A DNA stretch of 64,000 nucleotides from a virus (IMGVR_UViG_3300042892_001069), one strand, 5' to 3'. Positions 2,600 through 59,803 are shown, counted from the stretch's first letter. The notes: generated by a model from the letters alone, not told the origin. Numbers and translations: made by a program.

Positions 2600-2600
<1 letters not shown>
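2331..2600 (-). CDS. Fiber N-terminal-domain protein (89 aa)
   Basis: MTKQVINTGTAANAKNGDPIRTAFEKVNANFDELY: classic phage tail-fiber N-terminal motif (GDxIRxAFxKVNxNFxxLY). Confidence 0.5.
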
Positions 2601-14115
<11,515 letters not shown>

Positions 14116-19928: not shown

Positions 19929-19957
19929 ATTATACGTTCATTCTGAGGCATTGTCAA
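19929..19957 (-). promoter_or_regulatory. Consensus sigma70-type promoter TTGACA-17-TATAAT (minus strand), overlapping stop of upstream rSAM gene
   Basis: Minus-strand read: TTGACAatgcctcagaatgaacgTATAAT. Confidence 0.55.
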
Positions 19958-43506: not shown

Positions 43507-44439
43507 TTGATGTACGCACATTATGGAATCAACTACGATCCGACCAACTTTAAAATCTGGTATTCTCATTGCCAACGTCCGTCAGCTACGTGGACAGAGG
43601 AGATTAAAAAATCTGCTCAAATGTTAGCAGACTCAACTGATCGAGATATATGGATATGTATGAGTGGCGGAATTGATAGCGAAGTTGTTGCTAAAACATT
43701 TAAAGATTTGGGAATACCATTTCGTGCGTTAATAGCTCAGTTTCCAGACAAGTTAAACGAGCATGACATTGTGTATGCTCGTCGATGGTGCGAGTATCAC
43801 AATGTTGAATATAAATTGTTTGACTTTGACATGCTGAACTTTATAAAACAAGGCCACACTAAGTATCTTAAAGATGGACTAGTATCCAATAATATCTTTA
43901 GGTATTTTTGTATAGAGATGTTACAATGTATTGAAGACATGAACGGTTTTGGAATACTAGGTGGAAAGAGTGTTGGACTTGGGCTATTACAAAAAGATAA
44001 AGATATTGTAGATCCCAACAATGATCCAATTTACGACAGTTATGATATTGGATCATTAGCACCAATAGAATGGTGCCGTAGAAACAATCTTAATCATTGT
44101 GTTTTCTTTTATCAAACAAGTTCAGAAATACACAAGGCTTACTTAAATGATCCTATCAATCAAATGTTAATCAATAATCCCTATATGTTGCGAGCTTCAT
44201 CAGCTAACGAAGCCGCCAAGACATTAATGATGAGATCACATTTTCCGTTTACTGTGCCAAGAACAAAGCATCATGGCTTTGAAAAAATTATGGGTATTAG
44301 GGAAGAAGCACAGAAAAATATGGCTAGGTACTTTGGTCTTGATCCAGAGACTGATAACAAACGTTTTAAGTTTGTATTTTACAATGACCATATATCTATT
44401 CCCATAGGACACGTATTGGACCAATTACATTATGAATAA
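43507..44439 (+). CDS. PP-loop (SGGxDS) ATP-pyrophosphatase-family enzyme, paralog 1 (310 aa)
   Basis: WICMSGGIDSEVV P-loop; asparagine-synthetase/QueC/amidotransferase-like superfamily. Confidence 0.65.
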   Translation: MMYAHYGINYDPTNFKIWYSHCQRPSATWTEEIKKSAQMLADSTDRDIWICMSGGIDSEVVAKTFKDLGIPFRALIAQFPDKLNEHDIVYARRWCEYHNVEYKLFDFDMLNFIKQGHTKYLKDGLVSNNIFRYFCIEMLQCIEDMNGFGILGGKSVGLGLLQKDKDIVDPNNDPIYDSYDIGSLAPIEWCRRNNLNHCVFFYQTSSEIHKAYLNDPINQMLINNPYMLRASSANEAAKTLMMRSHFPFTVPRTKHHGFEKIMGIREEAQKNMARYFGLDPETDNKRFKFVFYNDHISIPIGHVLDQLHYE

Positions 44440-45079
44440 CCCTCAGATATTATTTGCGCTCAGTAGTTTCCATAGTTTTGATTCACGGCTATTGGTAATA
44501 TCTGATCGTGTATCAATATTAGAATGGCTTCGAGAAACTATTCCAACATATGAGTTTAGAGTTACTACAAACTTGTTGCCAATGAATGGTTACACTAAAG
44601 AACTTACATATACTAATAGTCACCTTTATAAGACTATAGATCAGAATGTAATGTTACAGAGTAATGCTAACAGCGAGATTGTAGAAATGAGCAACTTATG
44701 CAGATCGTGGTACGAAGGTTATATTAAAATTAATAACACAATTAGTCATCAGCGCAAACATTTGGGCGCCATGTGGATGTTTTCCTTACAAGATGTAGTG
44801 TACCAAGAAAAAGTTAAAGAAGCAGAAAAAGTATTAAACAACCAAACGGAAGATTTGAAATTCCTTCCATCAGAAGCAGGTTATAAAAAGATGTCTCTTC
44901 GAGAGCTAGCCGACCGAGTATTAGTAGAACACGAAATTGCGATGGGCTTCCTAGCAAGAACTGAACACTTGCGAGTCAAGTGGCTTGACACTTTGAAAGC
45001 ATCAACTAGCATTGCTAAACACAAAGAGATCCTAGTAGGGTTTAATAGAGAATTATATGAATACCATCTCATGTCCTAA
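44432..45079 (+). CDS. Hypothetical protein (215 aa)
   Basis: ORF track. Confidence 0.4.
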   Translation: MNNPQILFALSSFHSFDSRLLVISDRVSILEWLRETIPTYEFRVTTNLLPMNGYTKELTYTNSHLYKTIDQNVMLQSNANSEIVEMSNLCRSWYEGYIKINNTISHQRKHLGAMWMFSLQDVVYQEKVKEAEKVLNNQTEDLKFLPSEAGYKKMSLRELADRVLVEHEIAMGFLARTEHLRVKWLDTLKASTSIAKHKEILVGFNRELYEYHLMS

Positions 45080-46181
45080 TATTTTATTGTTTAACAGTAT
45101 TGTAGCCGAGGAACAGTTTAGAGGGTTGCCCGGGGTACATCAGTGGTCTAAGACTAGAAAAATTTGGGGGCATAACGGCTCTATGATTGATCGCACTGGT
45201 GTAGTACAGTTGCCGTTTAAAACAGAATTTTTAGATTCTATGCGGATTCCAGACATCCCTCAGAATTTTTCAAAAACATTAGAACAATGTTGTGTTGAAC
45301 ACGCACGGACAATAGTCGACCAAGCAGTGGGTACAGATCAAACAATTTCTATACTATGGTCCGGCGGCATTGATTCTACATGTGCGGTGTCTAGTTTCTT
45401 AATGTGTACTACTGCCCAAGAACGCACCCGTATCACAATCTTACTTAACAGAGAAAGCATTCTTGAAAATACTAAGTTTTATCAAACACACTTGGTAGGG
45501 AAATTAAATTGTAAAAGTAGCAACACTTGGGAATCATATATACGTCCAAATAACATATTTGTCACAGGTGAAGGTGGCGACCAGGTCTGCTGGAACGGGT
45601 TTACTAGAGCATCGGATACTATATTCAATGTACTAGGATGGGATACGCTTAAACAGTTTGCCAGTGCCGACTTAATGATCAAGGTACTTGAAATGGTAAG
45701 CCTTGATAAAGAGTCGGCAACTATAGGGTATGAGCGTGTGCTTGAACCCCTAAGGCAAAACTCAGTTGTTCCTGTAAATACAGTCGGCCAGCTATTATGG
45801 TATTTTAACTTTGCCGCTAAATGGCAAAACGTGTATCTTAGAACACTGCTAAACTTAGTAGACAACTCTGTCATAACTGATAACTATATAGCAACGAATT
45901 TTAAAATGTTTTTCCAAAGCAGTGATATACAAATTTGGACTATGTTAAACAATGAAAGCACAGTGTTAGTTAACAAGTTTACAGACATCAAGATGCCGTT
46001 AAAGCAAGTAACATATCAGTATGATAAAGATGAATACTACAGAGAGCATAAAGTAAAAATTGGAAGTCTAGGACGATTATCACGTATGCGTCCTAATATA
46101 GGGTATTTAAAATCTAACTGGGAGTTTTCTCCAACAGTTGATATTGACCAGTATTACAATAACCAGAATAGTTTTATTTGA
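45057..46181 (+). CDS. PP-loop ATP-pyrophosphatase-family enzyme, paralog 2 (374 aa)
   Basis: ILWSGGIDSTCAV. Confidence 0.65.
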   Translation: MNTISCPNILLFNSIVAEEQFRGLPGVHQWSKTRKIWGHNGSMIDRTGVVQLPFKTEFLDSMRIPDIPQNFSKTLEQCCVEHARTIVDQAVGTDQTISILWSGGIDSTCAVSSFLMCTTAQERTRITILLNRESILENTKFYQTHLVGKLNCKSSNTWESYIRPNNIFVTGEGGDQVCWNGFTRASDTIFNVLGWDTLKQFASADLMIKVLEMVSLDKESATIGYERVLEPLRQNSVVPVNTVGQLLWYFNFAAKWQNVYLRTLLNLVDNSVITDNYIATNFKMFFQSSDIQIWTMLNNESTVLVNKFTDIKMPLKQVTYQYDKDEYYREHKVKIGSLGRLSRMRPNIGYLKSNWEFSPTVDIDQYYNNQNSFI

Positions 46182-47623
46182 TGAATAAAAAAGGTAAAGA
46201 CATAATCATATGGACCGGCATTCCTAAAAGGTTGCCACAAAAGGTCATCGGGGCTTACCAAGTAGCACATTGGGTACGCCAGCACGGTTATACCGCACAA
46301 GTGATTGATCATATTCACAGATGGGACACTGAAACTATTGTGTCTATGACTGAGCACTTTATTGGTACTGAAACTGTAGCAGTTGGGCTTAGTGCTACAT
46401 TTATGTTCACGGTAGGTGAAACTGTATCATACAAAGATTCAGATATTCCAGAAGCTGCCTTTCCTCGAGCTATCGCAGTTCTAAAAGCCAAATATCCAAA
46501 GATTAAATTTATACTAGGTGGCGCAAGTGTACGACTAGACTTGTACGAACATAGTGATTTGTTTGATATTAAGTTAGGTGGGTTTGGTGAAGAGACTATT
46601 ATAGATACTATGGCTAAATTAAAGACCGGCGGTATACACAAGCGGCCACCGGATATATTTGATATTACTAAGGCATCGCATAGATGGCATAGTGATGACA
46701 TTATCCAGCCAGGTGAGGCACTACCTATTGAGATTGGTCGAGGGTGTATTTTCAAATGTAAATTTTGTCGTTACAGATTAACAGGTAAAGCTAAAGGAAC
46801 ATACTTACGAAGTATGGATTGTATCAAAGAAGAGATTCTTGATAACTATGAGAAATTTGGAACAACTCGTTACTTTTTATTAGACGATACGTTTAATGAA
46901 GATGTTGATAAAATTACTGCTTGGTATAAGATGTCCCAGTCTTTGCCTTTTAAAATTGAGTCAACTGCCTATACACGGGCTGACCTAGTGTGGTCAACTC
47001 CCGAAACAGCTCACATGCTACAAGAAGGTGGCCTAGTTAGTACGTTCCTTGGGATTGAATCATTCCATCCTAAAGCTAGTATGGCTGTGGGTAAGGGGTG
47101 GATGGGCAAGCACGGTAAAACTTGGTTGCCACATCTTAAGGATGATTTATGGAAAGGCCAAATGTCCATAACTATGGGATTTATTGTAGGACTACCGGGT
47201 GAGCCAGTAGACAGTATGTACGAATCTCAAAAATGGTTAGTTGATAATAAAATTAACAGTTGGAGATTTAGAACTTTACAAATTACCCCTAACGCTCAAG
47301 ATTACGATGACGTTAGCGAATTTGAAAGAGACGTTGCAAAGTACGGTTATTCATTTCCATATGCTGATGATCCAAATAAATGGAAAACTGATATTATGGA
47401 TAAGAATCGTGCTAACGAAATACAAGATGACATGTTAGCTAAATCTCGACCGTACATGCGCCACAGTTCTTGGGATCTGCCTGCTATGTTAAGTTTGGGG
47501 TATACCTGTGAAGATGTTCATATGAAATACTTTAATAATCCAATTTGGCAAACTAAGACTGATAGGATTCGACAGTTCTTAAAAACCTACAAGCAAATGA
47601 TGTTTGCTATCGATGTAGTTTAA
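46178..47623 (+). CDS. B12-binding-type radical SAM enzyme (481 aa)
   Basis: EIGRGCIFKCKFCRY (GCxFxCxFC); N-terminal ~170-aa Rossmann-like region consistent with cobalamin-binding domain. Confidence 0.65.
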   Translation: MMNKKGKDIIIWTGIPKRLPQKVIGAYQVAHWVRQHGYTAQVIDHIHRWDTETIVSMTEHFIGTETVAVGLSATFMFTVGETVSYKDSDIPEAAFPRAIAVLKAKYPKIKFILGGASVRLDLYEHSDLFDIKLGGFGEETIIDTMAKLKTGGIHKRPPDIFDITKASHRWHSDDIIQPGEALPIEIGRGCIFKCKFCRYRLTGKAKGTYLRSMDCIKEEILDNYEKFGTTRYFLLDDTFNEDVDKITAWYKMSQSLPFKIESTAYTRADLVWSTPETAHMLQEGGLVSTFLGIESFHPKASMAVGKGWMGKHGKTWLPHLKDDLWKGQMSITMGFIVGLPGEPVDSMYESQKWLVDNKINSWRFRTLQITPNAQDYDDVSEFERDVAKYGYSFPYADDPNKWKTDIMDKNRANEIQDDMLAKSRPYMRHSSWDLPAMLSLGYTCEDVHMKYFNNPIWQTKTDRIRQFLKTYKQMMFAIDVV

Positions 47624-48735
47624 AGTTTGCCTATAGTGAATGCTGGAGTTCTGCTTGATTTTAAAGAAGCACCCTCTCCATGATAGCTGTTGTTGATACC
47701 ATCTAACAATCCATTGTAATGATACTTCCATGCGTCAATAGTTCTTTCAAACTCTGGATTTTCATATAACCAAAAATCTCTATCAGTACGTGCAGCAGTA
47801 GTAGGCTTTCCAGCTTGAAACTTGTTTAAGTCCCATGTATCTTTGTAACAGATACGCTTGGTTAATTCGTTGTTATATTCTACTATAGTATTTCTATGAT
47901 GTGCTAAGGGTTCGCGCCACATATATTGTTGAGCTGACGGGTTTTCTTTATAGAACAAAAACATTTGATATGCCATTTCAAAAGGTAACTCTGGCATAGA
48001 TGGTGACCAGTAGAATGGTTCAAATGCGCCTACAGAGTTTGACGCAATATGAAATGTTATGTCAGTAAAATACATACCAACCATTCCATCACCCCAAGTA
48101 GCAACAAACGGTTTATCAAATCCATAAATGCTAGCAACTGTTTTACCCTTGTCAAGCATACTAGTTGCCACCTTTGGCTTATTTAAATTTCTAAGTAATG
48201 CTCCTGCCCCCCAAAATACAGATGTTTCTAAAAATCTATTGTCAGTGTAATAGTGCTCGGATATATTTTCAGACCAATCGCCTATCTCAATATGTATCTC
48301 TGGGTGAGCTGAGCTGAGCCATTTGAGAGTTGGCTCGACAACAAGGTCCCACTCACTGAGCAAATTTTTAGCTGTTATATCTTGAGTGTTTGGAACATAC
48401 ACTCCGTTACGTATTGTGTGCTTAGGCCAATTAACGTATATTTGATCTAATTTAATGCCATTGTTAATAAATGACATTAGAATAGTGTGACTATCTGCGC
48501 CGCCCGAATAAAATAATACTAGGTGATCGTAAGTATCTCTCAGTTGCTGAGCACGTTGCTTGTACAGCATGGACAACGATTGAGTACCCATAAGAGTTCT
48601 ATCAAAGCTAGCAAACACATGATTATGCCAGTTCCATTTTATATCAGGACATCCGTTAGTACTAGCATACAATACTGCCTCTCTCTTATTAGTAAAGGTG
48701 GTATCTCCAACGGTCCATGTGCCCCAACTACTCAT
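47620..48735 (-). CDS. PP-loop ATP-pyrophosphatase-family enzyme, paralog 3 (371 aa)
   Basis: LVLFYSGGADSHTILMSF; close paralog of 52946-54100. Confidence 0.65.
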   Translation of the reverse strand: MSSWGTWTVGDTTFTNKREAVLYASTNGCPDIKWNWHNHVFASFDRTLMGTQSLSMLYKQRAQQLRDTYDHLVLFYSGGADSHTILMSFINNGIKLDQIYVNWPKHTIRNGVYVPNTQDITAKNLLSEWDLVVEPTLKWLSSAHPEIHIEIGDWSENISEHYYTDNRFLETSVFWGAGALLRNLNKPKVATSMLDKGKTVASIYGFDKPFVATWGDGMVGMYFTDITFHIASNSVGAFEPFYWSPSMPELPFEMAYQMFLFYKENPSAQQYMWREPLAHHRNTIVEYNNELTKRICYKDTWDLNKFQAGKPTTAARTDRDFWLYENPEFERTIDAWKYHYNGLLDGINNSYHGEGASLKSSRTPAFTIGKL

Positions 48736-48737
48736 TG

Positions 48738-49043
48738 TTAGTTGATAGTTTCTGTAATTTCTGAAACAATTCCGTTAACTAAATTGTATTCTTGTCTCTC
48801 GGCCCAACCTAGCTTTGAAGTTCTTATTTCATGATAGTTGGCATAATTTTCTACAGTGTCAAATACAATAGTAAAAATACGTGTATTATTGTCAACTACT
48901 TCCATGGCATTGCTCACGCATCCCGGTAGTACTCGAATCTGTTCGTTAAATGTTTTAAGCATTTGGCTATTCTGTTCGCTAACTTCACCAAAAAATTGTG
49001 TGTTTGCTGGCTTAGTACTAGTGATTTTTAATGTAACTGGCAT
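48738..49043 (-). CDS. Hypothetical small protein (101 aa), possibly ABM/Dabb-like alpha+beta fold
   Basis: ORF track; size/composition only. Confidence 0.35.
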   Translation of the reverse strand: MPVTLKITSTKPANTQFFGEVSEQNSQMLKTFNEQIRVLPGCVSNAMEVVDNNTRIFTIVFDTVENYANYHEIRTSKLGWAERQEYNLVNGIVSEITETIN

Positions 49044-49074
49044 GTTACTGATCTCCTAAAAGTATATTTATCAG

Positions 49075-50517
49075 TCAGTAATTCATTGATCTGCTAAGAT
49101 AGGTTGTGACTAATTGTTCGTTAAGATTGTCTTTAATGATTCGTTGATTCATTTCGTAGTATGTGGTGTTTAATACATCTTTATAACTAAATCCAAAATT
49201 TCTAATAGCAGAGAGATTCCATACACTGGGTACTCGATGTTGCTCAGTACGTTGTTTAAACTTGTTACACCATGCTCCTGCTCTAGCTTCAGTCATAAAG
49301 TCAGTTTCCCATTTGCCGCCTACAAATCGATACCCGTGTTTTTCAGGCTCTCTTTCAAAATCACTCATTGCTAGAGTAGGTGACAAGTATAACTTGTTAT
49401 AGTGAAAGTCGTGTACTCTTGATTTAAAATACCATTCAGTTGAGTCGTCCCAATCTTTTTCAGTTTCCTGTCCGAGACCAGCTATCATAGAACATCTAAC
49501 TATAACATCATCGCCCCATAGCTCTCCAATTTGCGTAAGCGCAGGTTTATAGTTCTTAGCACCCCACCCCTTACCAATCATGTTACACGATATTGGATCA
49601 AAAGATTCTATGCCAAAGTGACAGCTGACTAAACCAGACTCTGGCAATGATTCAAACTGTTCTGGCCAAATGTTTATTAAATCTAATCTAGCATATCCAA
49701 TGTATTCTATTTTAAAAGGTAAGTCCTTGGTCATTTCAAAGAACTTCTGTGTACGTATACGATGTGCGTTTAACGTATCATCAGTAATATGATATCGTGT
49801 TGTTCCAAATAAATTGTAATTTGATATCAGAGATTCTCTAATACACTCCATCGATTTGTTAAAGTCATCCTTATCCTTGCCAATATTAGGGTATTGACAA
49901 AACTTGCATTTAAAAATACACCCCCTGCTTAACTCTAATGGGAGAGATTCGCCTGGCAGTATAAAATCATTCTCGGCAAACTTCATAGTACAAGTTTGTA
50001 TATCAAATGTGTTCACAGAGCTGGGATGAAATACTCTATTACCGGAACCAATTTGAAATACTGGTGCTACTTCGTTTTTAAATACATGATTACAATACTC
50101 TAAAAAAGAATTTTCAGATTCATCTTTAAAAACTGCGTCAACTTTAAAAGCAAGCCGTTTATGGCCATACCATAAAAATCCTCTAACAAACTGGCCTCCT
50201 ATTACAATTTTAACCCACGGAAAATTGTCTTTGATTTCGTTAAGTATATCAAAGACAGGGCCTTCGCCCTCAGTAATAATTTGTGGACTGTCTAACATTA
50301 CAAAGGGAGAAAATCCAACAATCTTTGTTTCTGTGGTTATATACTTTTTAAATAAAGCAAGACGTTGCTCACTAGTCATAAAATATAAAAAGTCTAACAC
50401 TTGGGTACTGTAACCGTTAGTCCGTAGCCACCAAGCAATTTGATAAGGCCCTAAGTATCGAACCTGGCGTAACGGATTAGTATCAGTTGTTAATATTACT
50501 ACTTGCATTGCTGACAA
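49075..50517 (-). CDS. B12-binding-type radical SAM enzyme, paralog of 46178-47623 (480 aa)
   Basis: ELSRGCIFKCKFCQY; colinear with paralog. Confidence 0.65.
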   Translation of the reverse strand: MSAMQVVILTTDTNPLRQVRYLGPYQIAWWLRTNGYSTQVLDFLYFMTSEQRLALFKKYITTETKIVGFSPFVMLDSPQIITEGEGPVFDILNEIKDNFPWVKIVIGGQFVRGFLWYGHKRLAFKVDAVFKDESENSFLEYCNHVFKNEVAPVFQIGSGNRVFHPSSVNTFDIQTCTMKFAENDFILPGESLPLELSRGCIFKCKFCQYPNIGKDKDDFNKSMECIRESLISNYNLFGTTRYHITDDTLNAHRIRTQKFFEMTKDLPFKIEYIGYARLDLINIWPEQFESLPESGLVSCHFGIESFDPISCNMIGKGWGAKNYKPALTQIGELWGDDVIVRCSMIAGLGQETEKDWDDSTEWYFKSRVHDFHYNKLYLSPTLAMSDFEREPEKHGYRFVGGKWETDFMTEARAGAWCNKFKQRTEQHRVPSVWNLSAIRNFGFSYKDVLNTTYYEMNQRIIKDNLNEQLVTTYLSRSMNY

Positions 50518-51112
50518 GATTCTTTTCTCTTAGTTTATCAATAGTTGAATAATAATGGTCGTATGTTATAGGACCTTTAGTTTTTAACGGGCTCAATTCA
50601 TAATAACCCATTGATAGTACGTACCTAGTAACAGATCCGTAATTAATGCTGTTGTGTGGTATTTGTGTGTTTAACAAATAAAATTGATTAGTCTCGTAAT
50701 TAAGATTAGTATAAGGAAAATAGATGTAGTCTCTAGGCATAAACGAATCCTTTTTATGTTCGTGGGCAAACATAACTAAGTACCGGTCATCTTGTGTTAG
50801 CATTAAATTAAATGCAGTAGCACGGTACGCATCTCTATGCCAATTATAAATGTGTCCCGGTTCTATTAACAGTATTTTTGGGAGTAAATTAAATTCATGT
50901 ATAAGCTCTAAAATCGGTTCATCCTTAAAATATTCCAACGGAACTTTATGTTGTCTAAACGTGGCTATTACTTCTACATCGTCAGCAATTCTTCCATCTT
51001 TACCTTCTCGTTTAGATACATCGACATGCCCATAATCAAAAGTTTTACAATCTTCAAATAATTTATTTGTTGGCAACAGTCCTATATTTAATTTTGTAAA
51101 ACATTCATTCAT
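50483..51112 (-). CDS. Possible cupin/2OG-oxygenase-like protein (209 aa)
   Basis: NWHRD...(H)EH...PH candidate HxD...H; weak. Confidence 0.35.
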   Translation of the reverse strand: MNECFTKLNIGLLPTNKLFEDCKTFDYGHVDVSKREGKDGRIADDVEVIATFRQHKVPLEYFKDEPILELIHEFNLLPKILLIEPGHIYNWHRDAYRATAFNLMLTQDDRYLVMFAHEHKKDSFMPRDYIYFPYTNLNYETNQFYLLNTQIPHNSINYGSVTRYVLSMGYYELSPLKTKGPITYDHYYSTIDKLREKNLVSNASSNINN

Positions 51113-51113
51113 G

Positions 51114-52046
51114 CTACTTCTCCATTTTTGCTAGTCTTGCTTTACTAGCAGTAATTGTGTCCAATACCCCCTTAGTACCAAACGTTGCACTGATTGTAAA
51201 GTCTTTTGCAAACTCTTGCTGAACTTGTTTGTTACTGATATATTCTTTTAAGAACCCCGACCAGAATTTAGTTACTTCAGCACTAGCGCCAGTCGGTGTT
51301 ACGACTGCAAATCCGTCAAACTCCTTCCAACCTGTATATCTATCTTCTACCACAGGGATTGACATGTAGCCTTCTACTTTTGATTTTGAAGTTGCAACAA
51401 GTCGTAACTTGCCCGCATCAATATGGGCCTTGACAATATTCAACGGTACGTATGCTGCATCAATTGTTCCTGCCAGCAAGTCATTGATTACTGGGCCGCC
51501 GCCTTTATATGGAACTGCCAAAGGTTCCTTGCTTGGTTTAGCAAATTCAAAAAATTGATCCAGTACCATTCGTTGACCCGGAGCACCATATCCAAATTTA
51601 ACATCGTCTCCACGTCTAACTGCGTTTTCCAAATCTTCAAGAGTTTTAATTGAACTTTTTGGATTGACTACAAATGCGCCAATACTATCTCGAATACCAG
51701 TAACAATCGTACAACATTTTTCAGAGTCTTTTAATTCTTGATATGCTAATACTCCAGCAGTTGTTACTGAGATATGAAATCCGTCTGTTGGCATAGATGC
51801 TAATGCTCGCATGGCAATTAAGCCGTCGGCACCTGGCCGATATTCAGCTACTAATTTAATTCCTCTGTCAAGCGCATATTTTTGTAAATGTCTAAATGAT
51901 TGATCAACTCCACCACCCGGAGCAAAAGGAATGATTACAGTTATTGGTTTGGCTGTTGGTTCAAATCCAAAAACGTACGGACTGATTACTGTTAGTAATG
52001 AGCTAAGTGTTATTGCGGCAATTGATTTTTTAGTTTTAAGTCTCAT
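51114..52046 (-). CDS. Bug/TctC-family periplasmic substrate-binding protein (start MRLKTKK at 52046; ORF track extends to 52097)
   Basis: Signal peptide; family motifs IIPFAPGGGVD and EYRPGADG. Confidence 0.6.
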   Translation of the reverse strand: MRLKTKKSIAAITLSSLLTVISPYVFGFEPTAKPITVIIPFAPGGGVDQSFRHLQKYALDRGIKLVAEYRPGADGLIAMRALASMPTDGFHISVTTAGVLAYQELKDSEKCCTIVTGIRDSIGAFVVNPKSSIKTLEDLENAVRRGDDVKFGYGAPGQRMVLDQFFEFAKPSKEPLAVPYKGGGPVINDLLAGTIDAAYVPLNIVKAHIDAGKLRLVATSKSKVEGYMSIPVVEDRYTGWKEFDGFAVVTPTGASAEVTKFWSGFLKEYISNKQVQQEFAKDFTISATFGTKGVLDTITASKARLAKMEK

Positions 52047-52106
52047 ACTGTATTTTATCACTTTTTGATAATATTTCCTACGATTGTGGCAGGCCATAAA
52101 TAACAG

Positions 52107-52949
52107 ATGAATTCATTAGGATCCAAATACCCAATTATAGCTGCCGCAATGAATCAAGTATCGGATATTCAGTTGTCCAAAGCAGTCAGGCATGCTGGTG
52201 GGATTCCTAGCTTGTCTATTTATAATTACAAAAATAACTTTCAAGGCTTAGTAAACGACCTTATAGATTATAAGAAAGAGTTCAACGACCTTAAACTCTT
52301 TTTAAGTGTTGGCGATGCTGAGTTAAAAATTCCAGCAGTACTTGATTTAATTTTAAAATCTAAAATTGAATTTATAGAATTAATAATTGAAAGTACTAAT
52401 ACGCTAGTTGGACTACAATCTATTACAGATAACGGAACAAAAGTATTTGTAAAATGTTTAACCATTGATGGAGTTATCCCCGGAGTCACTGGAGTTATAC
52501 TTAAAGGTAACGCTGGCGCCGGGCGAGGTGCTGAAGATTTAGATAACTTATTTCACCAAATTAAAACGCACTACCCAGATCTAAAAATAATTGTATCTGG
52601 CGGTATTGGTACTTCTACCCAAGTAAAGCATTATATAGACAACGGCGCATTAGCAATATCAATAGGAACATTGTTTGCTGTAGCAGAAGAAAGTAAAATT
52701 TCTCTAGAAACAAAACTTAAGATAATTAATTCTACAAGCACTGATATTTCTCAGTTTAATATTGGCGCAACTCAAAACGCATTAGTTTTTAGTAGTGTAG
52801 ATAATGACGATTATAATCACACTACGGGGTTGCACATTGGTATACAGAGTCCAACAGCTGGACATGTATTTGTTGGCACTGCCGTAGACTATATAACTAG
52901 CAGTAGGCCAGTAGCCGATATTATTAACGATCTAGTAGCAAAATTATGA
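52107..52949 (+). CDS. Nitronate monooxygenase / NPD-family FMN TIM-barrel oxidoreductase (280 aa)
   Basis: YPIIAAAMNQVS...AVRHAGGIPSL resembles PIIQAPMAGVS...AVSNAGGLG; C-terminal GALAISIGTLF. Confidence 0.55.
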   Translation: MNSLGSKYPIIAAAMNQVSDIQLSKAVRHAGGIPSLSIYNYKNNFQGLVNDLIDYKKEFNDLKLFLSVGDAELKIPAVLDLILKSKIEFIELIIESTNTLVGLQSITDNGTKVFVKCLTIDGVIPGVTGVILKGNAGAGRGAEDLDNLFHQIKTHYPDLKIIVSGGIGTSTQVKHYIDNGALAISIGTLFAVAEESKISLETKLKIINSTSTDISQFNIGATQNALVFSSVDNDDYNHTTGLHIGIQSPTAGHVFVGTAVDYITSSRPVADIINDLVAKL

Positions 52950-54100
52950 TATTAAACTCAACTAGTGTTTATACAGTCGATGGTATAAATTTTGAATCTA
53001 AAATTCAGGCTTGCCTATTTGCCAGCCAAGTAAACAAACCAGTAACTTGGAACTTCAACAAAGAATTTTTTAATACCTACAACTGGTCCGTTGAGCCTGA
53101 TCAATCGTTGGATGAGTTGTACAATGCGCGGGCAAGGCGACTTAGAGAAAACTACGATTACTTAGTATTGAGTTATAGTGGAGGTGCTGATAGTCATAAC
53201 ATTTTGATGAGCTTTGTTCGACAAGGATTGAAAATTGACGAGTTGTTGATTAATCACATGTCTGATGCGTGGAAGAGTCATGTAGTGTTAGACGCAACCC
53301 AAACAGCCAGCTGGAATACCGGCGCCGAACACGATCTTCATACAATGCCCTTATTAAAAAATATTCAGCATTTAATTCCTAACACCAAGATAACTGTATT
53401 AGATTTAAGTCAAAATTTGTTTGACACATTTATTAAAGCAGGCGATGCTAGTTGGGTACTAGAAAGAAATGAGGGACTGAATCCATTAAACGTTACAAGA
53501 TTTAATTACGCATATTTTTCTGATATTAGAAAACAGTTTGATAAGAATCATAAGATTGCTATGATAGTAGGAATTGATAAACCTAGGCTTATTATTAGCA
53601 ACAACATTGCCTACTTGTTGTTTAATGACAGAACTGTTAATATTGTTCCTGTAAAGAATCACTTTGAAGAATATACAAACTCGTCGTTAGAATTTTTCTA
53701 CTGGAGTCCGGACGCGGTTGATATTATGTGTAAACAGGCTCATGTTATTAAAAGATTTGTTGAAACAAATATTCAGCACAGATCGTTGTTTGAATGGAAT
53801 AATAATTACACTTCTAACTTTAGACTATTCCAGGAAAAAATGTTAAGACAAATACTGTATACTACCTGGAATAAAAGTTGGTTCCAAACTGATAAAGCAG
53901 TAAGTGATTGGGACAGCGAATTTGACACGTGGTTTGCTAAAGGCTACGAGGGACATAAAGCACACACTATATGGAAGGAAGGGTTGACCCACATGATTAA
54001 GAATGCCCCAACCTTCTTAAAATATAAAGCTGACGGAACTCCTGACGGACTAAAAGGATACCTACAGCATTATAAAATTGGACCAATAGTTACTATGTAA
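52946..54100 (+). CDS. PP-loop ATP-pyrophosphatase-family enzyme, paralog 4 (384 aa)
   Basis: LVLSYSGGADSHNILMSF. Confidence 0.65.
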   Translation: MILNSTSVYTVDGINFESKIQACLFASQVNKPVTWNFNKEFFNTYNWSVEPDQSLDELYNARARRLRENYDYLVLSYSGGADSHNILMSFVRQGLKIDELLINHMSDAWKSHVVLDATQTASWNTGAEHDLHTMPLLKNIQHLIPNTKITVLDLSQNLFDTFIKAGDASWVLERNEGLNPLNVTRFNYAYFSDIRKQFDKNHKIAMIVGIDKPRLIISNNIAYLLFNDRTVNIVPVKNHFEEYTNSSLEFFYWSPDAVDIMCKQAHVIKRFVETNIQHRSLFEWNNNYTSNFRLFQEKMLRQILYTTWNKSWFQTDKAVSDWDSEFDTWFAKGYEGHKAHTIWKEGLTHMIKNAPTFLKYKADGTPDGLKGYLQHYKIGPIVTM

Positions 54101-54527
54101 CAGCCTTGCCCCAAGATACTCTATTCCATACACGTTCGTGTGTGTAGTATATAATAATATTCATAATAGTAGCAATGGTTAGAAAGGCCACTGCCGCCTT
54201 CCATGATCCAGTAGTAAGGTATGGGATCATAAAGTTATTAAATGTAATCAATGCTCGCCAAGTAATACTCTTACTAATAGTTCTAGGTTGACCGTCCACA
54301 AACATATTAGTATCACCGTCTTTACGATTCCACTGAGCATAATTCCATGCTCGCTCGTGTAGCCAATGTAAGGTCATATTAACTACCGCGGCAATGCCAA
54401 GGATTTGGGCGCCAATGATCCAGCTACCAGACACTATAAATCCGTTCAGCAAGTGACTTAACGAAAAACAAACTCTGATAGTTAATGTTTTGGCAATGCT
54501 TCTTTTGTGTTGTTCTGTATATTTCAT
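54093..54527 (-). CDS. Small membrane protein with internal duplication (HERAWNYAQWNR / HERVWNRVSWGK)
   Basis: Two repeated TM+motif halves; DUF2061-like. Confidence 0.45.
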   Translation of the reverse strand: MKYTEQHKRSIAKTLTIRVCFSLSHLLNGFIVSGSWIIGAQILGIAAVVNMTLHWLHERAWNYAQWNRKDGDTNMFVDGQPRTISKSITWRALITFNNFMIPYLTTGSWKAAVAFLTIATIMNIIIYYTHERVWNRVSWGKAVT

Positions 54528-54571
54528 CAGCTATTTATTTTAGCAGCCTTACGGTATAAAATAAATATCTC

Positions 54572-55408
54572 ATGTTTAATAATCCATCTAAAGTGTTAGC
54601 CCATTTGTCGGCTGTAGCAACTGGTAATTTTGTAACTGCTGAATATATCCTTAACGGTGATAACAGTGGAGTTAATCTATTCCACAGATTTTGCCCACAC
54701 AGAATGTATCCGCTAGCACAACCGGGTCAGCACACTGGAGAAATAGTATGTAAGTTCCACGGCTTTAAGTGGACTGACCGTGGCCAACCTATTAACAACG
54801 AACGTAAAATTACGTGTGGTAAAGCAACAGTTGGAAGATCTGGATTAGTGTTTAAAGACTTTATCGAACCAGAGCATAAGTGGGTAGATATTCTAGCTAG
54901 TGAAGATAGATTAGTTTACAGTCATTCTATGACCGGTGCTAGTAAAACAGGTAGCTGGTTATGGATGATGGATATACAAGCAGACTTACTACACATCTGG
55001 AATGATGGAATACATCCATCGCTGGCCGCCAGTACTAATCTAGACGATGTTATTATGGATCAAGGTAACGGCTGGGCGTTACAGTACTGCTCAACAGGTT
55101 TTTGGTTAGTGTTATATCCTTTTACATTTATTGAGTGGAGCCCAGGCTGTCTAGCTATAAATGTTGCTACTCCTAACGACAATAACACCGAATTTGGATT
55201 TACTTGGATTACGCAGTTCTATTACGATCCTAGCACTTCTCCTGAGAAGCGAGCAGACTTTGAAACTTTAGAAGATGTATTCAAAGAAGATGTTGAAGCA
55301 GTTGAAACTCAGCGAGGCGGCTACTATCCGTTAATGCAACCTATTAACAGACTAGAAGACCATTGTGTACATTTTGGTAAATGGGTCACTGAGAATAGAT
55401 CAGTTTAA
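54572..55408 (+). CDS. Rieske [2Fe-2S] domain oxygenase-like protein (278 aa)
   Basis: CPH-x16-CKFH = CxH...CxxH Rieske ligand motif. Confidence 0.6.
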   Translation: MFNNPSKVLAHLSAVATGNFVTAEYILNGDNSGVNLFHRFCPHRMYPLAQPGQHTGEIVCKFHGFKWTDRGQPINNERKITCGKATVGRSGLVFKDFIEPEHKWVDILASEDRLVYSHSMTGASKTGSWLWMMDIQADLLHIWNDGIHPSLAASTNLDDVIMDQGNGWALQYCSTGFWLVLYPFTFIEWSPGCLAINVATPNDNNTEFGFTWITQFYYDPSTSPEKRADFETLEDVFKEDVEAVETQRGGYYPLMQPINRLEDHCVHFGKWVTENRSV

Positions 55409-56375
55409 GCAAATCAGCTTCTGAATACGTTTGCTTTTTAGGCGGTATAAAAGGTTTCCATATATACTGCTCGCCAAACTCTACCATGAACGGTGGAAAC
55501 AATTTTTCTTTATTAGGAACTTGACCTTCAAACCCAACAAGCTTCATTCGGTTTAAAAGTGTTGGCCAGTATTCTTGATGAATCCTAGATTTACTACTCA
55601 CATTGTCTAACTTACCTATTATGCTATCATTAATTAGTTGCTGGACATATGGCAGTTGTGTATACGCTACTACAATTTCCGGAGAGTATTCGTACCAATC
55701 AGTGATAGCAGTACGTCCAATAGTCTTATGATACGTTGCCCAATGATGTGGGGCTTCGTCCAGCTCAAATACCCAAGGGTGCTCAGTAGCCATATCTCTG
55801 CTAGTTCTTCTATAGTAAGGTTCGCCGCTGCCAATTATCGGAAGACCGTCTACATACTCTGTCATTTTCATGTGCGGCAACCATCCTGGCCCAGTAGCAT
55901 AAGACTTAGTCCAGATGTCGTATGCTTCGTTTTCAAAAAACTTTTCTAAATTAAAATCAATCACACACGGAGTAACATTAAGCTCTTGGCAAATCTTAAT
56001 AGCGGAGTTGTAATCGTGTACGTTGTGATTGTTGCTGTACTTACAGATATATACCTTAATTGGAATTTTTAGATCTAAATAAATTCTTAATATTACTTCG
56101 CTATCTATGCCGCCTGAAAACAGCAAACTCAATTCGCCGTTAAATGTATCTCTGATTGCACATGCGTTTGCCTTTAATTCTTCATAGTAACTTTTTACAG
56201 GACGTGTGATTACATTTTTAATTGTACACTTAAATTCTGCCGTTGGATCTAACTTAGGGCCATACTCAGAGCCGTCATTGTAAGTCCACGATAACCAATT
56301 ATCTCGATAAAACATATTGCCCCATTTGATGTGACCAGCGATGTGCACCTTGAAAAGTAATACCGTGTACAGCAA
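55386..56375 (-). CDS. PP-loop ATP-pyrophosphatase-family enzyme, paralog 5 (329 aa; possible start at 56315)
   Basis: LSLLFSGGIDSEVILRIY. Confidence 0.65.
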   Translation of the reverse strand: MLYTVLLFKVHIAGHIKWGNMFYRDNWLSWTYNDGSEYGPKLDPTAEFKCTIKNVITRPVKSYYEELKANACAIRDTFNGELSLLFSGGIDSEVILRIYLDLKIPIKVYICKYSNNHNVHDYNSAIKICQELNVTPCVIDFNLEKFFENEAYDIWTKSYATGPGWLPHMKMTEYVDGLPIIGSGEPYYRRTSRDMATEHPWVFELDEAPHHWATYHKTIGRTAITDWYEYSPEIVVAYTQLPYVQQLINDSIIGKLDNVSSKSRIHQEYWPTLLNRMKLVGFEGQVPNKEKLFPPFMVEFGEQYIWKPFIPPKKQTYSEADLLKLIYSQ

Positions 56376-56880
56376 CCCATTGCTTACAACTTTCCGGAAC
56401 AGGATCTAACGATCCGCATACATTATATTTGTCCTCAGCCATATAAAATTTAACTCCACAATTAGTTTCAATTAGATCTAAGTAATGTTTAAACGCTAAG
56501 GGATTATGTTCTCTGCTGATAAACACACAGTCTAAACCTAGTATCTGTGCTTTGGCCATTTGTAAGGGCAAACAATAGGTTGTATTGAGAAACTTGTCCC
56601 CACCGGTAAATTTACCTTTGTGTCTGTAGTCAGGATGTATCCACATACGAGTACTTACCCGCCCGACACCCGTACCCCACTTAGTGTCACTCAATTGTAA
56701 AGCACTAAAACAGACAATTTGATCGTCAATTATCACTACTGGAAAGCAGGCAAAGTCACGTGGGTCTAACCCTATGTAATTATCTTTAAGGCTATCATTA
56801 GTAGTTGCTAGATATTTTTGGTACTGATCCCAGAGTTCCTGATCAAAATTTGTAGCAAAGTCAATTATTGTTCTTACCAT
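56299..56880 (-). CDS. Hypothetical protein (193 aa), possibly acyltransferase-like
   Basis: ORF track; weak resemblance only. Confidence 0.35.
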   Translation of the reverse strand: MVRTIIDFATNFDQELWDQYQKYLATTNDSLKDNYIGLDPRDFACFPVVIIDDQIVCFSALQLSDTKWGTGVGRVSTRMWIHPDYRHKGKFTGGDKFLNTTYCLPLQMAKAQILGLDCVFISREHNPLAFKHYLDLIETNCGVKFYMAEDKYNVCGSLDPVPESCKQWVAVHGITFQGAHRWSHQMGQYVLSR

Positions 56881-56903
56881 ACGATATTTACTTAAATACT
56901 ACC

Positions 56904-57728
56904 ATGCCTAAAATAAATTCATTTCTCTATTATATTCTCTATCCTGTACACGCACTAGCATGGATTGGCGTTATTGCTTATTCATTTTTCTTTGACTTTA
57001 CGTGGACAAACTTCTTTCAATTGTTAGTTGGATGGATTATAATTGAGGGGTTGGGGGTTGCTGTAGTCTTACACAGATATGTAAGCCATAAGGCGTTTGA
57101 GGCTCGCCCTGGATTAAAGCCAATCTTACTTTGGATTAGTTGCTTGTCCTTGCAAGGGAGTCCACTAGGTTGGGCCGCAGTACACAGAGGTAGTCATCAT
57201 AGATACACGGATACAGAAAAAGACGCACATACTCCTACTAAGGGATGGTGGTATTCTTGGCATGCTTGGCTATATGATTGGGATCAATACTTTAACCCTA
57301 AGTACGTAATTGATCTAGTTAGGGATCCTATATACATGTGGTTTGCTAAACATTACAATGCTGTTATTATCGGAACCTACATAGTTGTAGGACTGTTTAG
57401 TTGGCAGTTGTTACTATTTGGATTTATGATACCGGCTGCTATAAGTTTGTATATGGAAAGTAATATTAATGTATTCTGTCACACCCCCGGAATTGGTTAC
57501 AGAAATTTTGAAACTAAAGATGCTAGTCAAAACGTGCCGTTTCTAGCATTGATTACTTGGGGACAAGGCTGGCACAATAACCATCACGCAAAAGCAAGTT
57601 CATATGACTTTGGTACAACAGTAAGTGGCAACAAAAAAGAGTGGGATCCTAGTTTAATATTCCTTCCGTTAATTGCTACAAAAGAAAGTCGTGAGAAAAT
57701 TTACAATGACCGACTTCACCCACAATAA
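56904..57728 (+). CDS. Membrane fatty-acid desaturase, acyl-CoA/acyl-lipid delta-9 (SCD/DesC)-like (ATG at 56904; ORF track used TTG at 56868)
   Basis: Three His boxes: HRYVSH, HRGSHHRYTD...D.H.P, GQGWHNNHH (cf. SCD HRLWSH / HRAHH / GEGFHNYHH); 4 TM segments. Confidence 0.75.
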   Translation: MPKINSFLYYILYPVHALAWIGVIAYSFFFDFTWTNFFQLLVGWIIIEGLGVAVVLHRYVSHKAFEARPGLKPILLWISCLSLQGSPLGWAAVHRGSHHRYTDTEKDAHTPTKGWWYSWHAWLYDWDQYFNPKYVIDLVRDPIYMWFAKHYNAVIIGTYIVVGLFSWQLLLFGFMIPAAISLYMESNINVFCHTPGIGYRNFETKDASQNVPFLALITWGQGWHNNHHAKASSYDFGTTVSGNKKEWDPSLIFLPLIATKESREKIYNDRLHPQ

Positions 57729-58617
57729 TCATTTAAAGTATACTATAGGTCAAGGACAGTATCGTAGTACATCTATAGAAAAGTATAATGTTCAGTTAGG
57801 CACAATAGACCCTGATAGATATGCCTGTAGCTCGTATACTGATGAACTACATAGGACCGCTGAACTAGTGCGCACGGATTTAGGCAACGACCTAGTACTA
57901 TTCCTATCAGGCGGAACTGACAGTGAAATTGTTCTACGTAATTTTATACATACAGGATTTAAACCACAGTGCGTTGTCCTACGGTTTGAAAACAATTACA
58001 ATGCCGGCGAGGTAGCAGAAGCACAGGCTATTGCTAGTGAACTAGATGTAAAGTTAAACATTATAGATTTTGATGTACATGACTTTTACAACTCCGGCGA
58101 AGCAAAAGAATTTGGTAATCAAATACAATGTACACAATTGACATACAATATGGTCTACAAAAGTATATTAACTCTGGGTGCGCCCGCAGTAATGGGCGGT
58201 GAAGCACTATTAACTAGGCAAGTAAGTACAACAGATAGTTATTGGTATTATACGTTTCGTGAAAACGAAGATGCTAGTGCTATGCGCTTTACTAACAAGT
58301 TTAGTATACCGTTAGTTAACGAATGGTTTAGTTACACACCCGAGTTGTTACTCTACTATCTAGAGCACCCCAGCATTAAAGAATTAACTACTAGTACTAA
58401 CTATAAACTAACATCTGCGTCTAGTAAGAACGCTATCTTAAAACAACTGTATCCTAATTTTAGAACTAAGAAAAAGATACACGGGTTTGAAAGTTTGTTA
58501 GCATTTAACCTAACGGCTTATAAGGACTTAGGACATGATCAAGTTAAGAGGTTAGAGTTTAGCTTGGATGGTGTTGAATACACGCAAGCAATTGCACAAC
58601 TTAAAGGCCAACAATGA
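57673..58617 (+). CDS. PP-loop ATP-pyrophosphatase-family enzyme, paralog 6 (314 aa; possible start at 57706)
   Basis: LVLFLSGGTDSEIVLRNF. Confidence 0.65.
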   Translation: MLQKKVVRKFTMTDFTHNNHLKYTIGQGQYRSTSIEKYNVQLGTIDPDRYACSSYTDELHRTAELVRTDLGNDLVLFLSGGTDSEIVLRNFIHTGFKPQCVVLRFENNYNAGEVAEAQAIASELDVKLNIIDFDVHDFYNSGEAKEFGNQIQCTQLTYNMVYKSILTLGAPAVMGGEALLTRQVSTTDSYWYYTFRENEDASAMRFTNKFSIPLVNEWFSYTPELLLYYLEHPSIKELTTSTNYKLTSASSKNAILKQLYPNFRTKKKIHGFESLLAFNLTAYKDLGHDQVKRLEFSLDGVEYTQAIAQLKGQQ

Positions 58618-59201
58618 TTGTAGAATTAGGTCAAACACACAAAGAATTAATTAAGCCTCTTTTTTATAGAGACACTTATATGGGCATGGACCTAAGCTCT
58701 AACTATATTGTTGACCCCAGCGAAAAAGTACAAACGGTATTTTACAATACGTTTGTAGATACATACCTATCTGGTCTACGTAACTACAAGGCTTTAGGCT
58801 TAGTTGAAAATGGCGTAGTAAAATCACTGATATCATTTTATATGAGCCCAGATGAACCTTGTTGGTACGGAACAATGATCCGTAGTCTTAATGATAAGAA
58901 CTATGTACGACCACTATTAGATTCAGCGATGGCATTTAACGAGACTCGTGGCCGTTTAAAGTTTTACACTCTTTGGAATGCCGACCACGGTAAATTACTA
59001 CGTAGATTTGCGTTTAGCACAGTCGCAAACACTCGTTACGATTATGTAGATGAAATACTAGTACCAGCAAGGACTAAATGTGTTTACACTAACTACTGGC
59101 AAATACTGTTTAACAGAACTTTACTGCCCGTTGACAGTGTTGTACGCTGTACCTTTTTAAAACAAGAATACAGAACTACTCCTATAGGAGGTAATATATG
59201 A
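58614..59201 (+). CDS. Hypothetical protein (195 aa)
   Basis: ORF track. Confidence 0.4.
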   Translation: MIVELGQTHKELIKPLFYRDTYMGMDLSSNYIVDPSEKVQTVFYNTFVDTYLSGLRNYKALGLVENGVVKSLISFYMSPDEPCWYGTMIRSLNDKNYVRPLLDSAMAFNETRGRLKFYTLWNADHGKLLRRFAFSTVANTRYDYVDEILVPARTKCVYTNYWQILFNRTLLPVDSVVRCTFLKQEYRTTPIGGNI

Positions 59202-59803
59202 ATATGGTAAGCCCGTTCAAATTGTTTGAACAAGATCTAAACACATTCAAGCTCAGTGCTAATATACATCTAGGACAAGAGCTACGTGAATTCTTTACAG
59301 ACCCCACTAACGATTACCTGTGGCAGTTAAGTACCCATAGACAAACTGTTACTCACGCTCTACGCTACACAGAAAGTATACCTTTACGCTACTTAAAAGA
59401 CTTGCCCAAAGGTTCCACAACAATGGAAGCCAATCAGCATATGGCAGTTACCGATTCAAAGCTAGCTGACATACCTGTATTTAGAAAGACGATCAATTGG
59501 TTTGAATCCACACTCGCCGCAACTGGCTGTAGTCGTGTAGAGTTTGGTCGAGTCTTTGCTAGTAAGCTCTCAGGCAATCAAAAGATAGACATACATACAG
59601 ATGACGGCAAGTATTTTAGCTATTACGATCGATTTCATTTTACGGTAACAGCCGCCCCCAATAATCTGTTTGTTATACGTGATGAAGAATGTGTACTAGA
59701 ACAGGATTCGTTGTATTGGGTCAATAATCATGTGCCGCACTGGCTTGAGAATAAAAGTACAGAAGGCAGAATAAATTTTATTATAGATGCTAGATTAATA
59801 TGA
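59198..59803 (+). CDS. Aspartyl beta-hydroxylase-like cupin oxygenase (201 aa)
   Basis: IHTDDG...RFHF...NNHVPH (HxD...H). Confidence 0.55.
   Translation: MNMVSPFKLFEQDLNTFKLSANIHLGQELREFFTDPTNDYLWQLSTHRQTVTHALRYTESIPLRYLKDLPKGSTTMEANQHMAVTDSKLADIPVFRKTINWFESTLAATGCSRVEFGRVFASKLSGNQKIDIHTDDGKYFSYYDRFHFTVTAAPNNLFVIRDEECVLEQDSLYWVNNHVPHWLENKSTEGRINFIIDARLI

Follow-up and report, generated by a model that had tools for sequence, protein, structure and literature searches.

Three ancient virus-associated families of PP-loop genes in a mosaic of recurrent cassettes from a large uncultured phage

Introduction

The viral stretch IMGVR_UViG_3300042892_001069, analysed over 64 kb (hereafter the window, with coordinates counted from its first letter), is phage DNA and carries, within 15 kb, six genes whose products share the SGGxDS motif of the PP-loop enzymes. 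As judged from their sequences and relatives, all six are real, conserved genes, and they belong to three ancient, virus-associated and so far unnamed families, here called A, B and C, which are present in three, two and one copies, respectively. The reading that we favour, and to which we assign a probability of about one half, is that the six proteins belong to the PP-loop ATP-pyrophosphatase superfamily and are stand-alone adenylating enzymes, with a fold nearest to the synthetase domain of AsnB, beta-lactam synthetase and carbapenam synthetase; the statements on fold and family membership are made with high confidence. The genes are arranged in cassettes that recur separately across hundreds of uncultured viral contigs, and the island that holds them is a patchwork of four or more independently moving cassettes. 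The three families, their prevalence in uncultured phages, their multi-copy clustering and the pairing of family B with TctC-type binding proteins appear to be undescribed, whereas the superfamily and its fold are already known; in the literature on PP-loop or AsnB-like enzymes and on TctC in phage islands, no description of these families was found.

Six genes and three families

Across all six reading frames of the window SGGxDS occurs six times, once in each of the open reading frames (ORFs) to which the original prediction had assigned it and nowhere else. Chance occurrence is ruled out by shuffling, which gave a mean of 0.065 occurrences when the nucleotides were shuffled and of 0.026 when the residues of the window ORFs were, with a maximum of one. 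In every one of the six ORFs the motif is preceded by a hydrophobic strand. The consensus first proposed, in which DS is followed by E or T, is correct as far as the motif goes, but in both family B proteins the residue after DS is H.

Family A comprises the genes at 43507..44439 (plus strand; 310 aa, likely start 43510), with the segment WICMSGGIDSEVV, SGGIDS at residue 53 (nt 43663) and a score of 306 bits with the hidden Markov model (HMM) of the family; at 55386..56375 (minus strand; a 329-aa ORF, likely 309 aa from 56315), with SLLFSGGIDSEVI and SGGIDS at residue 87 (nt 56117); and at 57673..58617 (plus strand; a 314-aa ORF, likely start about 57706), with VLFLSGGTDSEIV and SGGTDS at residue 79 (nt 57907). 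The starts of these three genes, slightly downstream of the ORF starts, are suggested by gene calls and by the lengths of homologues. Family B consists of 47620..48735 (minus strand; 371 aa), with VLFYSGGADSHTI and SGGADS at residue 77 (nt 48507), and of 52946..54100 (plus strand; 384 aa, 345 bits with the family B HMM), with VLSYSGGADSHNI and SGGADS at residue 78 (nt 53177). The only member of family C is encoded at 45057..46181 (plus strand; 374 aa), with ILWSGGIDSTCAV, SGGIDS at residue 102 (nt 45360) and a conserved GEGGDQ. The proteins are thus 310–384 aa long, and the HMMs of the three families recover these six ORFs and no seventh in the window. By word-indexed search, 57673 has 783 homologues, 47620 has 535 and 45057 has 25, and an exhaustive HMMER search with family C returned 1,791 cluster representatives.

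In BLASTP comparisons, the three family A proteins are 19–27% identical to one another (E 1e-13 to 1e-22; 2e-17 for 43507 against 55386) and the two family B proteins 28% identical (E 2e-34), family C stands alone, and between families just about 30 residues around the motif can be aligned. The original prediction spoke of two pairs of close paralogs and spelled out only one of them, 47620/52946; these two are clearly paralogous but, at such identity, not close, and the other group is the trio 43507/55386/57673. Profile-profile comparison reaches further: with a diverse family A alignment, A and B align over 197 columns (96.4%, E 1e-9), from the helix before the PP-loop through a shared F/Y-W/Y-S/T-P motif, A and C align at 95% over 73 columns, and B and C at just 61%.

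The age of the copies emerges from their relatives in other phages. The ORFs of 89 loci (denoted by L-numbers) and of the window were clustered, giving 90 sequences, and gene orders were laid out for each locus. Five of the six proteins have orthologues at 48–70% identity in other phage contigs, as in the case of 52946 (52%, in L041 and L057) and of 55386 (63%, in L052 and L042); the exception is 43507, whose only close orthologues among the fetched loci are those near-identical to the window. Since paralogues within the window are just 19–28% identical, the cluster was assembled from old lineages and not by local duplication, so that recent tandem duplication is rejected and the notion of a six-fold expansion, as far as it meant duplication in place, is abandoned.

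Fold and relation to known PP-loop enzymes

None of the standard libraries assigns the three families, as family A remains below the cut-offs and families B and C lack any significant match in Pfam or NCBIfam. With the QueC profile PF06508 (cut-off 22), family A scores 18.8–21.8 bits, with 21.8 for 57673 and 19.7 for 55386, which also matches the padloc QueC profile at 1e-5; with TIGR00364, also QueC, members of A alone score 16–21 against a cut-off of 150. The protein at 43507 has sub-threshold matches to QueC, Asn_synthase and NAD_synthase, and its 18.1 bits are the best score with PF00733 (threshold 21); TIGR01536 gives 13–16 against 267. PHROGs, PADLOC and NCBIfam yield weak QueC-type matches for A, including phrog_1550 ('QueC-like'), and none for B or C. 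Families B and C likewise match neither PF06508 nor PF00733, and have no Pfam match at E ≤ 0.01 and no NCBIfam match at E ≤ 0.1; a PDB sequence profile search with family B was empty, and a Pfam scan of all 43 aligned B members gave a faint PP-loop match in one. In the databases, homologues are called 'hypothetical protein', apart from stray automatic labels of QueC, AsnB or TilS.

The fold is nevertheless recognizable. The predicted models of B and C show a PP-loop fold, a Rossmann-like alpha/beta architecture that superposes on solved PP-loop enzymes, with the motif placed after a strand (E71–75 in B, E96–100 in C) and before a helix. Their closest structural neighbour is the synthetase domain of the asparagine-synthetase type, in which the PP-loop core is followed by a C-terminal helical subdomain. 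The PAPS reductase/FAD synthetase branch is not the closest neighbour of these models, and the N-acetyl-sugar amidotransferases of the WbuX, PseA and LfnA type appear neither as a curated-family match nor as the closest fold. The family A profile matches NAD synthetase (7e-7) and QueC (1e-5) in the PDB, with further matches to the solved structures of MJ0690, TtuA, MnmA, argininosuccinate synthase, GMP synthase and ASNS. The PP-loop fold predicted for B and C, together with the homology of A to B and to solved PP-loop enzymes, indicates that the SGGxDS matches are not coincidental; a coincidence without a shared fold was considered and is not upheld.

The synthetase domain of AsnB, beta-lactam synthetase, CarA/ThnM and TsnB9 represents the closest fold, at an identity of 8–12%. 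Unlike the enzymes of the AsnB class, the phage proteins have no N-terminal nucleophile (Ntn) glutaminase or glutaminase-like domain but only an N-terminal extension of 50–95 residues, score under the PF00733 cut-off or do not match it, and occur in viral contigs. QueC and NAD synthetase provide the sole sequence-level matches of family A. QueC and the NH3-dependent NAD synthetase are single-domain, ammonia-dependent enzymes without a glutaminase domain, and QueC structures have a C-terminal zinc-binding cysteine cluster. However, the match of family A to QueC spans about 65–80 residues (helix, strand, PP-loop, helix, strand), always under curated cut-offs, and the A proteins lack the zinc-binding cysteines, are about 100 residues longer and conserve a C-terminal K-x-x-G-F-E.

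In all three families a glutaminase domain is missing, as 52–101 residues precede the PP-loop and no Pfam GATase match was found. Conserved cysteines are absent from families A and B (in A no column has Cys at ≥ 60%); in family C, across 173 sequences, conservation is 80% at Cys79, and Cys109 varies. What each family conserves is distinctive: N110 and the C-terminal K-x-x-G-F-E in A; an unusual Y-K-x-R-A-Q-Q-L-R-D helix directly before the PP-loop strand in B; and, in C, D45, R46, SGGIDST, S134, E137, G171-E172-x-x-D175-Q176, several aromatic residues and the lysines K312, K316, K332 and K334.

Recurrent gene cassettes

The 15-kb region resolves into at least four units, each of which recurs separately in other loci. 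The first unit (L003, L004, L042, L080) comprises the GNAT-like unk193 (56299..56880, minus strand), which aligns with cluster c10 at 97.3% in hhalign, c10 itself scoring 20.3 bits with Pfam Acetyltransf_1, below the threshold of 20.7; a di-iron enzyme of the membrane fatty-acid-desaturase family (56868..57728, plus strand; Pfam FA_desaturase 2e-16); the family A gene at 57673; unk195 (58614..59201, plus strand); an Asp/Arg beta-hydroxylase-type cupin oxygenase (59198..59803, plus strand; Pfam Asp_Arg_Hydrox 5e-6), found in the same position in L003, L004 and L042; and a TauD-family 2-oxoglutarate (2OG)/Fe(II) oxygenase (59800..60675, plus strand; Pfam TauD 1.4e-16), in a cassette conserved in L003 and L042. 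Variants with the order c10 (GNAT-like), A, unk195 and desaturase are found in L001, L013, L016 and L065. Fatty-acid desaturases are present in 47 of the 90 clustered sequences, typically beside A, and unk195 directly follows 13 of 56 A genes, with the same order in L001, L003 and L013.

The second unit (L017, L022, L038, L042) starts with an NMO-like FMN TIM-barrel oxidoreductase (52107..52949, plus strand; Pfam NMO 4e-11) upstream of the family B gene at 52946, NMO, TctC and B being neighbours also in L041, L038 and L057. It continues with a DUF2061 membrane protein (54093..54527, minus strand; Pfam DUF2061 4e-24), which lies beside B in L017, L022, L042, L057, L070 and L082, and with a protein resembling the alpha subunit of Rieske-type oxygenases (54572..55408, plus strand; Pfam Rieske 6e-7, Ring_hydroxyl_A 2e-6), which adjoins the A gene at 55386 as it adjoins A genes in L017, L022, L042 and L052.

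The third unit (L052, L061) links the family B gene at 47620 to unk101 (48738..49043, minus strand), a protein of about 100 aa of the c5/c27 family (hhalign 95.7% for unk101 with c5 and 99.4% for c5 with c27) that is adjacent to 20 of 108 B genes; to a radical S-adenosylmethionine (SAM) enzyme of the B12-binding type (49075..50517, minus strand; Pfam and NCBIfam); to unk209 (50483..51112, minus strand), a cupin or 2OG-oxygenase-like protein aligning with the c4, c18, c19 and Asp/Arg-hydroxylase clusters at 88–96% in hhalign; and to a Sec-exported solute-binding protein of the TctC/Bug type (51114..52097, minus strand; Pfam TctC 2e-19, PF03401 70.4 bits against 27). The order B, B12-type radical SAM, unk209, TctC recurs in L052 and L061, and a variant with TctC, unk101 and B is found in L012 and L014. 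The relatives of the TctC-type protein in the PDB are Bug27 (1e-19), BugE, TphC, AdpC and BugD, whose characterised ligands are carboxylates. The TctC-like proteins have an N-terminal hydrophobic signal peptide in all 33 examined and are the most frequent conserved neighbours of B: of 108 B genes, 45 have one directly alongside and 53 have one no more than two genes away.

The fourth unit consists of unk215 (44432..45079, plus strand; cluster c50), which overlaps the start of the family C gene, of C itself and of a further B12-binding-type radical SAM enzyme (46178..47623, plus strand; Pfam Radical_SAM 3.5e-9), with sub-threshold full-length NCBIfam matches to B12-type radical SAM families such as PhpK and HpnJ. 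C is followed by the radical SAM gene also in L001, and unk215 precedes C in L127 and related loci (c50 before C in L127, L129, L131 and L160). Neither of the two B12-type radical SAM enzymes of the island has a significant PDB sequence match. The first and fourth units are joined in L125, L135, L143 and L154, in the order hydroxylase, TauD, A, unk195, desaturase, B12-type radical SAM, one further gene and C.

At the left edge of the island lie a second TauD-family 2OG/Fe(II) oxygenase (41257..42111, plus strand; Pfam TauD 2.6e-29) and, beside the A gene at 43507, a hydrophobic 452-aa polytopic membrane protein (42108..43466, minus strand; cluster c43), without family match, which is also found beside B in L042 and L080 and is a possible transporter, although no similarity to TctA was detected. 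No family match was obtained for unk195, unk215, unk192, unk181 and unk252. The recurrent partners of the cupin/2OG type are unk209, c4, c18, c19 and c199, and those of the GNAT-like type are unk193, c10 and c48. A metagenomic protein of 561 aa (P0352) combines the PP-loop domain of family C with a GNAT acetyltransferase domain at its C-terminus (PF00583, 28 bits), a fusion that echoes the GNAT-like genes adjoining family A. Furthermore, downstream of B in L059, L062, L065, L067, L083 and others, a module c5-c27-c5-P450-c31 takes the place of TctC, in which c5 and c27 are related to unk101 of the window and the cytochrome P450 is cluster c22; and gene pairs whose products resemble a peroxiredoxin (AhpC) and AhpD, as judged by reading the sequences, recur near PP-loop cassettes in L034, L060, L090, L127–L131 and others.

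It had been proposed that each copy is flanked by a different redox enzyme. Several such pairings do recur in other phage genomes, namely A with the fatty-acid desaturase, the Asp/Arg-hydroxylase-type cupin and TauD, B with NMO, Rieske and DUF2061 or with a B12-type radical SAM enzyme and a cupin, and C with a B12-type radical SAM enzyme or a cupin, but the commonest conserved neighbours of B, the TctC/Bug protein and unk101/c5, which the original prediction did not mention, are not redox enzymes. Copy numbers were counted in 75 non-redundant B-centred loci of at most 21 kb each: two to seven PP-loop genes are found in 49 of them and a single one in 26, and with seven copies in L042 and L080 the six of the window lie at the high end and are not unique.

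Proposed chemistry and alternative explanations

Catalysis by every characterised member of this fold proceeds through an acyl- or imidoyl-adenylate, with the beta and gamma phosphates of ATP bound at SGGxDS. By analogy, the phage enzymes would use ATP to adenylate the carboxyl (or an amide carbonyl) of a small-molecule, lipid-head-group or peptide substrate; pyrophosphate, held by the SGGxDS loop, would then be released, and ammonia or an amine of the substrate would attack, yielding an amide, an amidine or a lactam, as in the reactions of NH3-dependent NAD synthetase, beta-lactam synthetase, CarA and the lasso cyclases. Given that a glutaminase domain and conserved cysteines are lacking, free ammonia or an amine of the substrate is the most likely nucleophile. 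The neighbouring oxygenases and radical SAM enzymes may tailor the same substrate before or after the adenylation step. For the three families we regard this adenylation and amidation as plausible, with even odds. The ATP-dependent carboxylate activation or amidation originally put forward is, given the PP-loop/AsnB-type fold, the most reasonable chemistry, amide or lactam formation being what we infer from it. With regard to substrates, the pairing of B with a Sec-exported Bug/TctC carboxylate-binding protein suggests that B acts on imported organic acids, captured outside the cytoplasm, in which case the ligand of TctC and the substrate of B would be linked; for A, the association with GNAT-like proteins and membrane desaturases points to N-acylated or lipid-like substrates.

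A known parallel for this combination of enzymes is carbapenem biosynthesis, in which an AsnB-like enzyme, B12-dependent radical SAM enzymes and 2OG oxygenases act on one small molecule, CarA/ThnM being followed by ThnL/ThnK, with CarC (PMC9407657). The phage cassettes share with the carbapenem/thienamycin and clavulanate clusters an AsnB-type adenylating enzyme, 2OG oxygenases of the TauD/clavaminate-synthase type and B12-type radical SAM enzymes. However, neither a crotonase (CarB/ThnE) nor another enzyme of the early steps could be recognised among the scanned phage neighbours, and the membrane desaturases and TctC proteins of the phages have no counterpart in those clusters. Without a crotonase or another carbapenem-specific enzyme, the likeness is an analogy of parts and not membership in the pathway.

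The chemistry could also be directed at peptides or proteins, with the PP-loop proteins acting as lasso-cyclase-like enzymes, as C-terminally amidating AsnB-like enzymes or, in the manner of Cap9, as QueC-like enzymes modifying a protein N-terminus. Phage-encoded peptides or the neighbouring tail-fibre and virion proteins would be the targets, and radical SAM/SPASM enzymes, Asp/Arg hydroxylases and P450s the tailoring enzymes. In its favour, AsnB-type synthetase domains stand alone here, without a glutaminase domain, and Cap9 is among the weak matches. The neighbourhood, moreover, has features of ribosomally synthesized and post-translationally modified peptide (RiPP) loci, such as SPASM and B12-type radical SAM proteins with weak NCBIfam matches to RiPP C-methyltransferases and ApyD, Asp/Arg hydroxylases nearby and a P450 in related loci, and the island adjoins a tail-fibre-like gene of 3,740 aa, a setting of the kind known as the 'host recognition cluster' in pelagimyophages (PMC7029224). 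However, gaps of at most 44 bp between 43.4 and 61.9 kb leave no room for precursor-sized ORFs, the Pfam scan of the neighbours revealed no PqqD/RRE (RiPP recognition element) or leader-peptidase family, and the most frequent partners, membrane fatty-acid desaturases and exported TctC, are not components of peptide pathways. In particular, the adjacent precursor, RRE and leader peptidase expected of a lasso-peptide cyclase (McjC/LasC) are not found. We consider a peptide or protein target unlikely.

A different question is whether the six genes act in sequence on a single scaffold, by repeated amidation or lactamisation, or in parallel cassettes. All six lie inside 15 kb, related phages usually have clusters of several copies (up to seven within 21 kb), A is directly before B in 16 cases, and the A and C cassettes are contiguous in the four loci L125, L135, L143 and L154. 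Yet L003 has A, unk195, the hydroxylase and TauD but neither B nor C, B with TctC is the sole PP-loop pair in L021, L023, L028 and L039, 26 of the 75 loci have one copy, and gene order and strand vary between phages. The idea of one scaffold, as advanced in the original prediction, is not supported by cassettes that occur independently in other phages, and a single sequential pathway, though conceivable for some pairs of cassettes, seems to us rather doubtful as a general account.

Modification of nucleic acids, of phage DNA or of host or phage tRNA, by enzymes of the QueC, TilS or a related type, for instance against restriction, would agree with the fact that the best curated-library matches of A are to QueC (the Pfam score just under its cut-off, padloc and phrog_1550 seen above) and that QueC homologues of phages are known (BFVD list). 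Against it, the similarity to QueC is limited to about 65 residues around the PP-loop (TIGR00364, 21 against 150), the lack of conserved cysteines speaks against a QueC-type zinc site, no FolE, QueD, QueE, TGT or DpdA is present among the about 40 window proteins scanned, the proteins are neutral to slightly acidic (median isoelectric point 5.8–7.5), and for B and C the AsnB-type enzymes are better matches than either QueC or TilS. A tRNA-linked function was rejected, as the window has no tRNA genes, and nucleic-acid modification as a whole is improbable.

Finally, sulfur insertion of the ThiI, MnmA, TtuA, LarE or thioamide-synthetase type, and with it the thiolation once suggested, is rejected as highly improbable, since the weak profile matches to MnmA, TtuA, NcsA, ThiI and LarE in the PP-loop region are outweighed by the lack, in all three families, of an invariant or near-invariant Cys for a persulfide or an Fe-S cluster and of any cysteine desulfurase or sulfur-carrier gene among the scanned neighbours.

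Host element and distribution

An identical copy of 45057 sits on a 276-kb contig, and the gene block recurs in several independent metagenome assemblies; we take the source to be a large, uncultured marine phage, T4-like or jumbo, with the genes in a hypervariable accessory island. On the minus strand, 2600–13822 is a single ORF of 3,740 aa with weak tblastn similarity to tail-fibre/baseplate (gp7/gp9-type) proteins of cyanomyophages, namely Synechococcus and Prochlorococcus myophages, and it probably delimits the hypervariable island on its structural side. The window also encodes a virion structural protein and, among the ordinary repair and replication genes of large phages, a UvdE UV-damage endonuclease (15405–16439, minus strand; repair) and an ATP-dependent DNA ligase (28668–29996, minus strand; phrog_114). 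A TROVE/Ro-like RNA-binding protein (62372–63850, minus strand; DUF2828 and DUF7788, phrog_850) has relatives at 42–47% identity in 711 records of phages with many different hosts.

Outside the PP-loop cassettes, a separate cassette at 19938–26537 (minus strand) holds three radical SAM proteins, one of 389 aa, one of 813 aa that is much extended at its N-terminus and one of 434 aa that has SPASM, together with an Asp/Arg hydroxylase (23532–24200) and unknowns, and recurs in L003 and L023. Two small genes at about 39768–40183 (minus strand; 4712–5127 in L006) have precomputed Pfam matches to eIF-1a (PF01176) and, weakly, to the MazE antitoxin, and in L006 a WYL_2 protein is encoded further upstream.

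Pelagimyophages have a hypervariable island beside the fibre genes, with radical SAM cassettes and transport genes, and an Asp/Asn hydroxylase is among their core genes (PMC7029224). The island of the window resembles this 'host recognition cluster' of T4-like marine myophages in its non-syntenic nature, in its place by giant fibre genes and in its radical SAM enzymes, hydroxylases, transport genes and desaturases, whereas that description (PMC7029224) makes no mention of the PP-loop families; the 276-kb contig is also much larger than the genomes of pelagi- and cyanomyophages.

The three families are large. In IMG/VR, B is encoded by at least 483 stretches and C by at least 477, and the families comprise at least 1,791 clusters at 50% identity for C and hundreds at 90% identity for each of A and B. 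The nearest predicted viral structures (BFVD) are uncharacterised proteins of uncultured Caudovirales only. Among 50,697 records of isolate phages no match was found for the 16-kb region by megablast or for A (two members) and B by tblastn, and no relative of A or B was found in one genome for each of 185,579 prokaryotic species, in a scan for short peptide patterns that does not prove absence.

Significance

Three large families that are common in uncultured aquatic phages and that, as far as A and B were searched for, are found neither in isolate records nor in the prokaryotic genomes scanned have so far escaped standard annotation. A broader and admittedly speculative reading, which we hold to be doubtful, is that large aquatic phages own a combinatorial small-molecule toolkit, in which secreted TctC-type proteins would capture specific organic acids, the virus-specific enzymes A, B and C would adenylate these and make amides or lactams of them, and the products would be modified further by desaturases, 2OG and Rieske oxygenases, P450s and B12-type radical SAM enzymes; the modules, exchanged between phages, would then represent cassettes for natural-product-like biosynthesis (possibly beta-lactam-like or lipo-amino-acid-like) or for scavenging. 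The pairings of B with TctC and of the PP-loop genes with oxygenases bear on a puzzle of marine myophages, namely the function of their hypervariable islands rich in oxygenases and radical SAM enzymes, and the placement of the three families with the AsnB-type fold turns a block of 'hypothetical' phage genes into testable enzymes.

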